Shown here: positions 43,071 through 49,883 of the stretch, piece after piece
Layout of the letters: each line of letters begins with the position of its first letter
Numbering within the stretch: the first letter of the stretch is position 1
Assembly: GCF_056712565.1 (NCBI RefSeq)
Contig: NZ_CM160072.1
Reading direction: 5' to 3' (one strand)
Length of the DNA stretch: 64,000 bases
Made by a program: the position numbers and the translations under genes
Notes under the pieces: model-generated
The model's database searches: none
What the model saw: the letters and a program-made list of their open reading frames with translations, nothing else
What the model was told of the DNA's origin: nothing

Positions 43071-44726
43071 TTAGTCAGATTTAATCTGCGCGCGTGGTGG
43101 ATATTTTTTCAGGATCTCCATATACGCGTGCATTTCGGTCTGTAGCGGTACACCCATCGGAATATGGCGCACGCCGATAGAGTCGCTTTCCTGCGGATCG
43201 GTGTACAGGTTAAACACCGACGATCCCGCCGTTTGCATTACTGTGCCGGTGAATCCACCCTGATATCCGCTCTGGGTATAAGCGTAAGGTTGCTGAATCA
43301 GGACGTGATACTTGAACTCATCCATACGCACAGCAGAAAGTTTACCGTTGAGGAAGTAGTGCTCGGCCTTACGGTTAGACTGACCATTTGTTCCCAGGAA
43401 GAAAGATGTCTGGTCCACACCATCGATAAAGGTGGTTTTCGGTACTAAATTCGCTACTTTCGCCCCAGGATGCCCCGCCAGATCCAGCGCCGTAGGGAAG
43501 AGATCCGCCAGATCGACAATGCCGTCAGATTTACGCGGTTGGATCATGCCTTTCCAGTAAACGAAGGTTGGCACACGAACGCCGCCTTCCCATGTAGAAC
43601 CTTTCGCACCGCGGAACGGCGTGCGACCGTGCGGCGGAACTTCGGCTTCCGGACCGTTATCAGAGGTGAACACAATCAGCGTGTTATCAAGCTGACCGTT
43701 TTTCTCCAGTGCTTTATACAGATTGGCGAAGATATCGTTCATCTCCACCATGCAGTCGCCGTAAGAGGTGCGCGCCGGAGAGCTACCCGCATATTTGGCG
43801 TTCGGGTAGTTATCGAAGTGACAGCCGCGAGTGCCGTAATAGAGGAAGAAAGGCTTATCACTCTTCGCCATCTTGTCGAGGAACTTAACGCCATATTCCA
43901 TCCAGCGTTGATCCAGGTCTTCCATATATTTCGGCGTAATGTCGGCAATGGCTTCCTGTTCACCGCCGCGCACGGCATGAACGTCATCTTTGCTGAACGG
44001 CAGTTTTTGGATGTATTCAGAACGAGCCGGGCTCAGGGCGACTTCCGGGTTGACATGAACATCACGCCATTCGGTATACATATCGGACACCGAGTTAAAG
44101 CCGCGGAAATCATCAAAGCCAACGTTCTGCGGCTGCGACTCTTTGTTTTCCCCCATATGCCATTTCCCGATAGCCTGGGTGACGTAGCCCTGATCGTGCA
44201 GCAACTGCGGCAGCGTGGTTAACCCTTGCAGACCGCCCGGTTGCCCGTACATTGGCGGCATCAGAATGCCGTGGTGGATGGAGTATTGTCCGGTGAGAAT
44301 CGTGGCGCGGGTTGGGGAAGAACTCGGTTGAGAATACGCCGAAGTTAAAATCAGCCCCTGGCTGGCAACGGCGTCGATATCTGGTGTAGGGTTACCCACC
44401 GCCACGCCGCCGCCGTTAAAGCCAACGTCCATCCAGCCCACATCATCCAGCAAGAAAACAACCACGTTCGGTTTCTTACCGGTTTTTTTCTCAAGTTCCG
44501 CCAGTTTCTGCTGGGTTTCTTTGTCTTGTGCAGGATGCTGCATCACCGGCATCATGTTGTCGGCAATAGTGGTCGCCGGTTTAACCAGATACTGGTTTGG
44601 GTGATCGTATCCGGCAAAGCCTTTGCGTGCGGTGGCGGTTGACGGGGTATCTGCTGCGCTGGCTATGAGAGGAAGAGCTGCGGCGACAGCAACAACAAGA
44701 AGTTTGGGTGAAAACGAAAATTCCAT
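43071..44726 (-). CDS. aslA: arylsulfatase-family periplasmic protein
   Basis: 551-aa ORF with N-terminal signal peptide ([24 protein letters not shown]); sulfatase fold. Confidence 0.92.
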
Positions 44727-45150
44727 GCAAAATGCTCCGGTTTCATGTCGTCAAAATGATGACGTAATTAAGCATTGATAATTGAGATCCCTCTCCCTGA
44801 CAGGATGATTGCATAAATAATAGTGATAAAAATAAATTATTTATTTATCCAGAAAATGAATTGAAAAATCAGGAGAGCATTTTCAATCCTACCTCTGGCG
44901 CAGGTGATATGTAAGGCGGTGATGTTATATCGCGTTGATTATTGATGCTGTTTTTAGTTTTAACGGCAATTAATATATATGTTATTAATTGAATGACTTT
45001 TATTATTCATTATATATATGTGTAGAATTGTGCGCAGGAGAAATATTCACTCAGGAAGTTATTACTCAGGAAGCAAAGAGGATTACAGAATTATCTCATA
45101 ACAAGTGTTAAGGGATGTTATTTCCCGGTTCTCTGTGGCATAATAAACGA

Positions 45151-45404: not shown

Positions 45405-46601
45405 CTACTGTGGCGGGTTGTTCTGCAACGTTAACATCAAACCGTCGCGACGCATCGCTGCGGCTTCTTCCGGCTTGTGCAGTCTGTCCAGCGCGTCGGC
45501 AAGCCATGCGTAATCGTAGGCGTCCGGACGTTGTTTCAGCGCTGCGCGGAAGGCGAGCGATGCTTCCTGCCATTCTCCGTGTTTCATCAGCGACTGACCC
45601 AGTGTGCTCCACAACAGCGGGCGATCGCCCACGTTTTTGATCTGTTGGCGCAGCACTTTTTCCAGCTGTTCCGGGTTATTGGTTTTCAGACGCGGGATCG
45701 GCAGCAGCAGGCGATCGTCATACTGGCGTTTCAGGCCATCGATGATAATTTGCTGGGCAGTATCATGATCGTCACACTCAATAAGATGTTCCGCCATTGC
45801 CACCTGCAAGGCCACCTGATGACGCGTTTTCCGGCTTTGGTTTTTCCACCAGTTACGCAAACCTTCACTACCGTTATCGGCACGCGCCTGATCCATCAGG
45901 CCAATCCATGCCTGTTGTTCCAGCATTGCACGATGTTCTTCATCACCAACATGGGCTTTCGCCATTGATGGGATGATATCCAGCAGCGAACTCCATGCAC
46001 CAGTGCGGATATACGCCTGTTCCGCCAGACGTAATACTTCCGGATGGCGTGGCGTAACTTCCAGCAGCTTATCCACGCCGTGACGTGCTGCATGGTTTTC
46101 ATTACGGGCCAGTTGCAGACGTACACGGGTGATTTCTACCGGAATGGTGTCATTGCCGGCCAGCTCCGCTGCGCGTTCCAGATGTTGGTTGGCGCGTGCT
46201 TCATCACCACGTTGTTGCGCGGCTTCGGCTGCCAGTAGATAGTTCACCACCGGTTGTTCAGCGTGATCGGCATTTTTCGCCATCAGCTTTTCAACTTGCT
46301 GATAATCGCCTTCCGCCAGTTTCAGCAGCGCCTGTTCGGTCTGCTTACGTGCACGGCGACGCTTACGTCCGACAAACCACCCACGGGTGTGCGCGCCTGT
46401 GCGGAAGATTCGCCGCAGTAGCCACTCAATGGCAAACAGCACTACCATCGCCAGAATCAAAATAATCGCGAGGCCCGTGACGCTGGTTTCAATATTGTAG
46501 TTGTCGGTCTGGATCAGCACGTAACCCTGATGGCCGGCAATCATCGGGCCAACCACGATCCCCGCAATCAGCAACACAAAGAGCAATAACACTTTTAGCA
46601 T
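45405..46601 (-). CDS. hemY: HemY (inner-membrane TPR-like protein)
   Basis: 398-aa ORF; N-terminal TM segments MLKVLLLFVLLIAGIVVGPMIAG. Confidence 0.92.
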   Translation of the reverse strand: MLKVLLLFVLLIAGIVVGPMIAGHQGYVLIQTDNYNIETSVTGLAIILILAMVVLFAIEWLLRRIFRTGAHTRGWFVGRKRRRARKQTEQALLKLAEGDYQQVEKLMAKNADHAEQPVVNYLLAAEAAQQRGDEARANQHLERAAELAGNDTIPVEITRVRLQLARNENHAARHGVDKLLEVTPRHPEVLRLAEQAYIRTGAWSSLLDIIPSMAKAHVGDEEHRAMLEQQAWIGLMDQARADNGSEGLRNWWKNQSRKTRHQVALQVAMAEHLIECDDHDTAQQIIIDGLKRQYDDRLLLPIPRLKTNNPEQLEKVLRQQIKNVGDRPLLWSTLGQSLMKHGEWQEASLAFRAALKQRPDAYDYAWLADALDRLHKPEEAAAMRRDGLMLTLQNNPPQ

Positions 46602-46603
46602 GG

Positions 46604-47797
46604 TTATTCTCCTTGCGGCGCGGCTGCCGGAGCATCAGCTTGCGGTGCAGGTGCAGGTGCAGGTGCAGGTTTAGCTTCCGTTGTCCCTGCTGCCGGTTGT
46701 GCCAGCAGGTTACGCACGCGGGTCTGCATCAATTTTTCCAGCATCGCCTGGCTTTGCAGGGTTTCCGGAAGATCCATCGAGATATTTTGCTGGCTTAACT
46801 GGTCCACCTCGTCGAGGAACGCTTTGGTGGTGGCATCATCAGTATCGTAGTAAGCACGTACCCAGGTGGAGACGTTCTCCAGCGCCTGGCGATAAGTCTC
46901 TTCCTGGTGACGCGGTACAGCTTGTGCTGCGACCAGCAGGCGAGAGCGAATATTTTCGCGCAGATAGATATCCTGATTTGGCGCTAACAGCGGTACGGCG
47001 GTGTCATCACGACGGCGAATCGTAATGAAGTTGTCCATAAAGTTCTGCCAGCTTTTTTGCAGATTGATACGCCATTCGCTGATGGAACTGGAAAGCTCTT
47101 CACCGTCGGAATCCATCGGCGAACCATCGCTGTCATTATCGGCCAGACGCAGATTATCTACCTGATTTGAAAGCTGATTAAGCTTAAGGATGATACCGTC
47201 ATAATCCACCTGCGATACCGCAGAAAGGCTGGCGATATCATCGGTAATTGCCCGGCGAACGGTAATCAGACTCGGGTCATTCATATCCGCCAGGCTGGCG
47301 TCTGCACTTTTCAGCAACGCTGCAGCGGTCGTGACGTCCTGATCGCTCCACAGCTTCCGTCCGGCGAGTTTCACCAGAAAATCGGCCTGGGCCAGCAGCC
47401 AGGTTTTAGCATCGCTGCCGGAAATGGTGGCGACCTTTTGTTGGACTTCATCCAGCTGTTTTGCCAGCGTTTCTTGCTGACGATTCGCCTGCTCAAGCTG
47501 TACAGCTTGTTGCTTGATAATGCCTTCCAGCTCGGCTTTTTGGCTCTCCTGGGCTTTTTGCAGTGCCGTAAGTTGGTTAGCCAGGGCATCGCTGGTGGCA
47601 GTCTGATTGACGGCCTGTTGTTTACCCCAGCCATACAAACCGACGCCCGCCGCCAGAGCAATAGCGATAGCCACCGCGCTGAGAATCAATGCGGTATTGT
47701 TCTTACTCTTTTTTTCTGTTGCGACAGGTTGTGACGTGGTGTCCACGGCCTCCCTGGTCTCTTCAACCACGGCGGAGGTTTTTTCTTGTTCCGTCAT
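46604..47797 (-). CDS. hemX: HemX (membrane-anchored coiled-coil protein)
   Basis: 397-aa [21 protein letters not shown]...; C-terminal Pro-Ala repeat ([22 protein letters not shown]). Confidence 0.9.
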
Positions 47798-47818: not shown

Positions 47819-48559
47819 TTATTGTAATGCCCGTAAAAGCGCATCGTTGTCAGCGTTATCGGCGACCTTAATGTCTTGCCAGCCCAGTTCCCGGGCGAGT
47901 TTCGCCAAACGCTCACTGACGACCAATAGTCGACAGCGTAGTAACCAGTGCTCACGATACCATTGTGGGATCAGCGACCAGAGTTGCTGCAACATTTCAC
48001 CGCTGGTAACAACGACCGTCGTCACCTCGCGGGATTGCCAGCGCATCGCTTCTTCTGCACCATCGTAATGGATTGCGCATCGTTGATAACATTCACAAAA
48101 AGTGACCTCAGCACCGCGCGCCGTCAGGGAATCCCCAATTAGCTCACGACCGCCATTGCCACGTAATATCAGCGCACGTTTGCCCGCAATATTTTGTAAT
48201 TCAGGTAATTGTAGCAAGACTTCGCTGATTTCCCGATCCTGCGGGTAGAGAATCTTCTGTCCGCTTACGGTATGTAGTGCCAGCGCGGTGGTGCGTCCAA
48301 TGGCGAAATAATCAGGTAGTCGGGGCCATTTACGATCTTGCTGATGCAGCTGTGATTGGGCAAAAGCAACCGCGTGTTGCGAGAGGGCAAACAACAGATC
48401 GCTCTCTCCCAGCGCTGCCAGTTGATCAGCAAGTTGCGGTAATTGTCGACCCGGAGAAAACTCAATCAGCGGAAAATGCCAGGCCACCTGCCCCAGTGTG
48501 CGCAGACGGCTCACTAACTCTTCTCCTGCGGGAGACGGGCGGGTGACCAGGATACTCAT
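47819..48559 (-). CDS. hemD: uroporphyrinogen-III synthase
   Basis: 246-aa [27 protein letters not shown]... Confidence 0.92.
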
Positions 48560-49497
48560 GCCGGGGCGTCTCCGTTATAGACTTCAGCGAGGATCTCGCG
48601 CGCGCCGTTATTCAGTAGCTCTTCTGCCAGCGAAATCCCCATTTGTTCGGCATCTTGCGGCGCACCGCGGCGTTCACCGCGAATAATCTGCGAACCGTCC
48701 GGCGCGCCGACCAACGCACGCAGCCAGATTTCGCCATCAATAAGCTCGGCGTAGCTACCAATTGGCACCTGACATCCGCCTTCGAGACGGGTATTCATGG
48801 CGCGTTCGGCGGTAACGCGCAGTGCAGTTTCGTGGTGATTCAGCGCGGCGAGCAGCTCGCGAGTGCGTGCATCATCAAGGCGGCATTCAATGCCCACCGC
48901 ACCTTGCCCTACCGCCGGAAGAGAAATCTCGGGTGGCAACGCGGCGCGAATGCGGGACTCCAGACCTAAACGTTTTAGTCCGGCTACGGCAAGAATGATG
49001 GCATCATATTCGCCGTTATCCAGTTTGCTCAGACGAGTGCCGACGTTGCCGCGCAGGGAGCGGATAATCAGATCCGGGCGGCGTTCAGCCAGTTGGCACT
49101 GGCGACGTAAACTGGACGTCCCGACGATACTGCCTGCCGGTAACGCATCCAGACTGTCATAGGTGTTGGATACAAAGGCATCGCGGGGATCTTCGCGCTT
49201 GCAAATGGTGACCAGCCCCAGACCTTGCGGGAATTCAACCGGCACATCTTTCATTGAATGTACGGCGATATCGGCGCGATTTTCGAGGAGCGCGACTTCC
49301 AGCTCTTTCACAAATAAGCCTTTTCCGCCTACTTTCGCCAGCGGCGTATCAAGAATCACATCGCCGCGCGTCACCATCGGTACCAGTTCAACGACCAGGC
49401 CCGGATGGCTCGCCATCAACTTGTCTTTGACATAGTGTGCCTGCCAGAGTGCAAGTGGGCTTTGGCGTGTGGCAATTCTTAAAACATTGTCTAACAT
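48556..49497 (-). CDS. hemC: hydroxymethylbilane synthase (porphobilinogen deaminase)
   Basis: Track ORF 48556..49518; probable start at [20 protein letters not shown] (313 aa). Confidence 0.92.
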
Positions 49498-49883
49498 GCT
49501 TGTTACCGTCATTATCATCCGTGGTCCATCCTAACATCCTTGCCAGAGCGATGTCAGTGTTGTGGTGAAACGTAGACGCCTGCGCAAACCGTAAAATGAG
49601 GTCTGGCAGTGGATCCTGACAGGCGCTTTGAGCCTTCGTAATAAGGAATTTACAGAGAATAAACGGTGCTACACTTGTATGTAGCGCATCTTTCTTTACG
49701 GTCAATCAGCAAGGTGTTAAATTGATCACGTTTTAGACCATTTTTTCGTCGTGAAACTAAAAAAACCAGGCGCGAAAAGTGGTAACGGTTACCTTTGACA
49801 TACGAAATATCCCGAATGCCGCGTGTTACCGTTGATGTTGGCGGAATCACAGTCATGACGGGTAGCAAATCAGGCGATACGTC

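Follow-up and report, generated by a model that had tools for sequence, protein, structure and literature searches.

The GGTGCA repeat near the 3' end of hemX is CVN014, a typing marker in routine use since 2007, and very probably a VNTR that changes length by in-frame slippage, each change being a tolerated and presumably near-neutral alteration of a Pro-Ala stretch in the HemX protein. CVN014 belongs to the generic E. coli MLVA (Lindstedt et al., 2007; GECM-7/GECM-10, Løbersli et al., 2012), of which it is the most discriminating locus, and it is used in the typing of outbreaks and of ESBL strains. The original prediction, which concerned a 64-kb stretch of DNA analysed here as a whole (the window), had put the repeat forward as a typing marker; it is one already, a precedent that the prediction overlooked. 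Our additions are modest: CVN014 is placed in the tail of HemX as a Pro-Ala tract, its alleles are found to run from 1 to 23, and its unit is predicted to form hairpins.

The repeat array and its identity with CVN014

On the plus strand, positions 46644–46670 read GGTGCAGGTGCAGGTGCAGGTGCAGGT, a perfect run of 4.5 GGTGCA units. Tandem Repeats Finder returned the same interval with a period of 6, 4.5 copies, 100% matches, a score of 54 and the consensus GGTGCA; the predicted hexanucleotide array of about 4.5 copies was therefore recovered, and Pfam analysis confirmed that the surrounding gene is hemX. With a length of 27 nt it exceeds every other perfect short-period run in the window, and no second array comparable to it was found elsewhere in the 64 kb. 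Across 600 shuffle controls (300 mononucleotide and 300 codon-block) the longest period-6 run was 18 nt, with a mean of about 13.8 nt, versus the 27 nt observed. Short units lie head to tail beyond chance expectation and vary in copy number between conserved flanks, as in a VNTR or microsatellite.

The array encodes P377 to A384 of HemX together with the first two bases of P385, and the PAPAPAPAP peptide occupies residues 377–385. The prediction of an in-frame Pro-Ala repeat in the HemX tail thus stands, but not its description as C-terminal: 12 further residues separate the repeat from the hemX stop, and it therefore lies near, not at, the C-terminus.

Table 1. Features of the hemX-hemY region, in window coordinates.
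Feature	Position	Strand	Description
hemY CDS	45405..46601	-	398 aa; HemY_N + TPR
CVN014 forward primer site (TCCCCGCAATCAGCAAMACAAAGA)	46559..46582	+	0 mismatches; within hemY codons
hemX CDS	46604..47797	-	397 aa; Pfam HemX and RefSeq name
Low-complexity HemX tail, aa 367-397	46607..46699	-	beyond Pfam domain
Hexanucleotide array	46644..46670	-	coding strand A, (CCT GCA)x4, CC; CVN014 allele 4
CVN014 reverse primer site (GCAGCRGGGACAACGGAAGC)	46674..46693	-	0 mismatches

The primer sequences of CVN014 and its allele formula, (product size - 111)/6, are published (Table 1 of PMC8143711). Each primer has one site in the window, and the two sites lie on opposite strands and bracket the repeat, where none would be expected by chance. 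The resulting in-silico amplicon (46559–46693) is 135 bp long and corresponds to allele 4, which is the number of complete GGTGCA units. Applied to the 18 fetched loci that contain both primer sites, the formula returns whole numbers between 1 and 23 that agree in every case with the GGTGCA unit count. Because both primers match the flanks and the formula fits, the hemX repeat is identified as CVN014; site, 6-bp unit, 111-bp offset and top-ranking polymorphism all agree, and we found no difference between the two. Integer alleles, near-universal presence in E. coli and high polymorphism, all expected of CVN014, are likewise found here. The published formula allows alleles to be called straight from assemblies.

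The variability of this locus is well documented. Of the loci in the generic E. coli MLVA, CVN014 has been described as the one that varies most (PMC3877011), as 'the most polymorphic locus', with nine alleles in the range 4–15 and a Nei D of 0.83 (PMC3519732), and as the locus with 'the largest variation' (PMC5217547), and alleles 2 to 11 occur inside ST131 alone (PMC3407997). Null alleles of CVN014 are not reported in published MLVA typing. A search of the literature on hemX in combination with VNTR or MLVA gave nothing relevant, the sole match being an unrelated Salmonella SNP table, and in the open-access literature we found no statement that places CVN014 in hemX or links it to a Pro-Ala stretch.

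Copy number across E. coli genomes

Of 5,426 complete E. coli genomes, all but one (5,425) contain a match to a 401-bp query around the repeat; the matched spans measure 389–473 bp and differ in 6-bp steps. Diversity was estimated from 118 genomes, drawn as two independent systematic samples (59 genomes each) of the ranked match lists. These contained 17 alleles (1–17), of which allele 2 was the commonest (about 17% of the sample), with a Nei diversity of 0.905; alleles 22 and 23 come from outside the sample. Twenty loci were fetched for inspection of the sequence, and the array could be read in 19 of them. In these 19 all length differences consist of whole, uninterrupted GGTGCA units, with counts of 1, 2 (K-12), 3 (twice), 5 (twice), 6 to 13, 15, 16, 17, 22 and 23, compared with 4 in the window, and the HemX tails accordingly carry from 1 to 23 PA pairs. 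The expectation that tail length would vary between isolates without frameshifting is therefore confirmed, by whole-unit changes in the 19 loci and by 6-bp steps in the 118 genomes, and the comparison of copy number across E. coli that had been proposed as its check shows strains that are far from identical, with alleles from 1 to 23. This range in complete genomes exceeds the ranges in the published PCR studies with which we compared it.

Grouping by flanking sequence gives three haplotypes, each with several alleles. One flank haplotype carries alleles 4, 5, 6, 7 and 11, another carries alleles 2, 3, 5, 8, 15 and 17, and a third carries alleles 1, 9, 10, 12, 13, 16, 22 and 23. Strains labelled O157:H7 have 5, 7, 8, 15, 16 or 17 units, and O111 strains have 12 or 22. 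Since haplotypes and serotypes each carry several alleles, copy number has changed many times on one and the same background. Overall the alleles are widely but unevenly distributed, with mostly long arrays on the B1-type flank haplotype; drift with shared ancestry and weak selection could each give rise to this unevenness. The isolate AB66 (L019; NZ_OZ547461.1) has a one-unit allele (…AKPAPQGD…) on a haplotype that otherwise has 9–23 units, and therefore points to a large contraction rather than to single-unit steps.

BLAST searches that used constructed alleles with 30 units and with 1 unit as queries did not rank the genomes monotonically by copy number, because long alleles come out as two overlapping pieces; the resulting tables did show alleles 15–23 and the spread within O157:H7. 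The remaining fetched locus, that of strain P276M (L014; NZ_CP044293.1), has an array broken by two 3-bp deletions and a frameshifted hemY with an internal stop, irregularities that are probably errors of a long-read assembly and not biology. At the protein level, the E. coli HemX cluster at 90% identity comprises 4,199 distinct sequences.

The HemX tail and the hemY junction

HemX matches the Pfam family HemX (PF04375) with E = 3.8e-108 over residues 130–363, corresponding to profile positions 2–235 of 236, and the RefSeq gene name is hemX in all matching genomes. The protein consists of an N-terminal transmembrane helix, a predicted long helix, the HemX domain (residues 130–363) and a Pro/Ala-rich tail (residues 367–397) that contains the repeat; the repeat thus lies outside the domain, and the tail is probably periplasmic. 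RefSeq names the product 'uroporphyrinogen-III C-methyltransferase', which appears to be a legacy misnomer: a Pfam scan of HemX (E <= 0.01) found no tetrapyrrole methylase family (TP_methylase, as in CysG/CobA), and the name is unsupported because that domain is absent. Besides the HemX domain, the same scan gave three weak, below-threshold matches to membrane proteins.

Across genera the middle of the tail varies while both of its ends (…RVRNLLAQP and …APQGE) are conserved. Salmonella HemX has a Pro/Ala-rich segment without the repeat, and HemX proteins of the C. freundii group have (PA)2 to (PA)4 in the tail. Three HemX sequences of Citrobacter sedlakii (P0009, P0006 and P0014; 394, 397 and 400 aa) contain (AAP)1–3 at the equivalent position, which, judged from these sequences, suggests a 9-bp VNTR of independent origin in another genus. 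The pattern suggests that the middle of the tail is a permissive low-complexity segment flanked by two conserved ends. In an AlphaFold2 model of HemX the final helix ends at residue 366 and residues 367–397 have no secondary structure; this result weighs little, because confidence is low throughout the model (mean pLDDT 43.6), which was built from a shallow alignment of 25 sequences. HemX accepts tail insertions of up to 46 residues, which is helpful for tagging and engineering. An E. coli-like HemX of 485 aa from an ENA metagenome contig (P0001) carries an internal duplication of 88 residues of the C-terminal part, in which HQEETYRQ…TTEAKPA is present twice and the second tail is broken by a Thr (PAPAPAPTPAPAPAP); the duplication could be genuine or a misassembly.

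Downstream of the repeat, the hemX stop codon TAA (46606–46604) is followed, on the minus strand, by 2 nt and then by the hemY start codon ATG (46601–46599). The hemY Shine-Dalgarno sequence, AAGGAG (46609–46614), lies within the final hemX codons; on the mRNA it lies 30 nt after the repeat, which is itself 42 nt from the hemY start. With only 2 nt between the genes, hemX and hemY are probably translationally coupled. In predicted mRNA folds early hemY codons pair with the whole of the Shine-Dalgarno sequence at every repeat number, which suggests that hemY translation would depend on ribosomes completing hemX. Of the 20 fetched strains, 18, belonging to different phylogroups, share one HemY accession, WP_000921791.1; 2017.20.01CC has another, and in P276M hemY is a pseudogene. 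The HemX accession differs in every fetched strain, mostly owing to the repeat.

Slippage, its alternatives and related repeats

Several properties of the array point to a change at the level of DNA. All units have the same codon pair, CCT GCA, and the Pro and Ala codons next to them are CCG, GCC, GCG and GCT; because one codon pair recurs in all units, the tract appears to grow and shrink as DNA rather than by selection for Pro-Ala. Pure arrays that change by whole units are the signature of slipped-strand mispairing, and we infer that whole units are most likely gained and lost by RecA-independent slippage of this kind during replication. Slipped intermediates may be stabilised by a hairpin in which the palindromic TGCA cores of the array pair. 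In single-stranded form the array is predicted to fold into a ladder of 4-bp TGCA stems, with energies of -4 kcal/mol at 4.5 units and of -24 and -19 kcal/mol at 16.5 units; the 16.5-unit folds have z = -3.4 and -6.9 against shuffled controls.

Because the unit is two codons long, every gain or loss is in frame, and all readable alleles keep the full hemX ORF. Each event would merely lengthen or shorten the Pro-Ala stretch within an apparently unstructured Pro/Ala-rich tail. In all these alleles the hemY ribosome-binding site is intact, as are the 12 final residues of HemX and its domain. Since these three elements are untouched, length changes are likely to be tolerated and probably close to neutral. 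Tolerated changes of this kind would then accumulate and so make this the marker with the greatest polymorphism in the generic E. coli MLVA.

The main alternative is that copy number is not neutral, and either sets the length of a semi-rigid spacer in the periplasm, carried by an inner-membrane protein that resembles Mic60, or tunes the coupled translation of hemY. If this were true, selection acting on the physiology of the envelope or of heme would lie behind the wide range, 1 to 23 units, seen from lineage to lineage. We regard it as improbable: comparisons between genera, mRNA folds, the structure model and the literature gave no sign that repeat length has a functional or regulatory role. 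The form in which the Pro-Ala stretch acts as a spacer or ruler, with strains tuning its copy number to set the reach of the HemX C-terminus across the periplasm, would agree with the conserved ends and length-variable middle of the tail, with the description of HemX as a distant relative of the membrane contact-site protein Mic60 (bioRxiv 10.1101/2022.06.14.496148), and with the lowered gentamicin sensitivity that follows deletion of hemX (PMC12282077). However, the hemY Shine-Dalgarno sequence is embedded in the last hemX codons, and its presence is sufficient by itself to account for their conservation. Natural isolates span the whole range of 1 to 23 units with no preferred length seen within a lineage, the repeat is absent from Salmonella, and pure arrays built from a single codon pair indicate mutation pressure over selection at the protein level, which together leave an adaptive length a slightly poorer prospect still than non-neutrality in general.

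An influence of copy number on hemY expression, through mRNA structure or ribosome transit, is less probable again. It would draw on the 30-nt distance to the Shine-Dalgarno sequence and on the likely coupling of the two genes; CCT is a minor proline codon, and proline-rich runs can slow ribosomes. Yet folds predicted for 2, 4, 8, 12, 16 and 23 units all show an array that pairs with itself, while one local hairpin, unaltered between alleles, holds the Shine-Dalgarno sequence at a constant pairing probability; alternating PA is, moreover, not known as a polyproline stalling motif. Least credible of all is a technical origin, in which the simple repeat was misread during sequencing or assembly and the variation is only apparent. 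Only the P276M record, with its interrupted array and frameshifted hemY, has that appearance, and everywhere else the arrays are pure and their lengths differ by exact multiples of 6 bp; with at most 138 bp, an array fits within a single read. Where a strain had been assembled twice independently, the two results agree, for Nissle 1917 and for T28R alike, and the variation is therefore not assembly noise; an artefact is ruled out by independent PCR and capillary sizing studies that report a comparable allele range. In-frame slippage of a tolerated repeat is thus left as much the most probable account.

Similar repeats serve in other typing schemes. STTR5 in Salmonella yohM/rcnA (STTR loci: PMC5183578) and the O157 loci (TR/Vhec/O157-n; PMC3768571) are likewise 6-bp repeats in or near genes that change by whole units, in frame, and are used for outbreak typing, but they appear to differ from the hemX repeat in gene and in unit sequence. 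A set of candidate sequences for the PulseNet O157 primers had no match in the window. Contingency loci of Haemophilus and Neisseria share slippage in a short tandem repeat within a gene, but these switch genes on and off by frameshift or promoter spacing, which a 6-bp in-frame unit cannot do. A phase-variable contingency locus is ruled out for hemX, where the unit is in frame, the ORF is kept by all alleles and the repeat is not located in a promoter. As a protein segment, the repeat resembles the OmpA hinge and the (EP)n(KP)n stretch of TonB, alternating X-Pro low-complexity segments of envelope proteins that are expected to be extended, and flexible or rigid. The HemX repeat is also an alternating X-Pro segment in an envelope protein; the OmpA and TonB segments, however, join two functional domains, whereas the HemX repeat is followed by just 12 residues.

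Elsewhere in the window, an imperfect direct repeat of 15/16 bp (45044–45073; 1.9 copies; TATTCACTCAGGAAGT) falls between a sulfatase-like ORF (43071–44726) and the end of hemY, in intergenic DNA. On the other side of hemX, the longest hemC ORF (48556–49518, minus strand) begins seven codons upstream of the familiar start.
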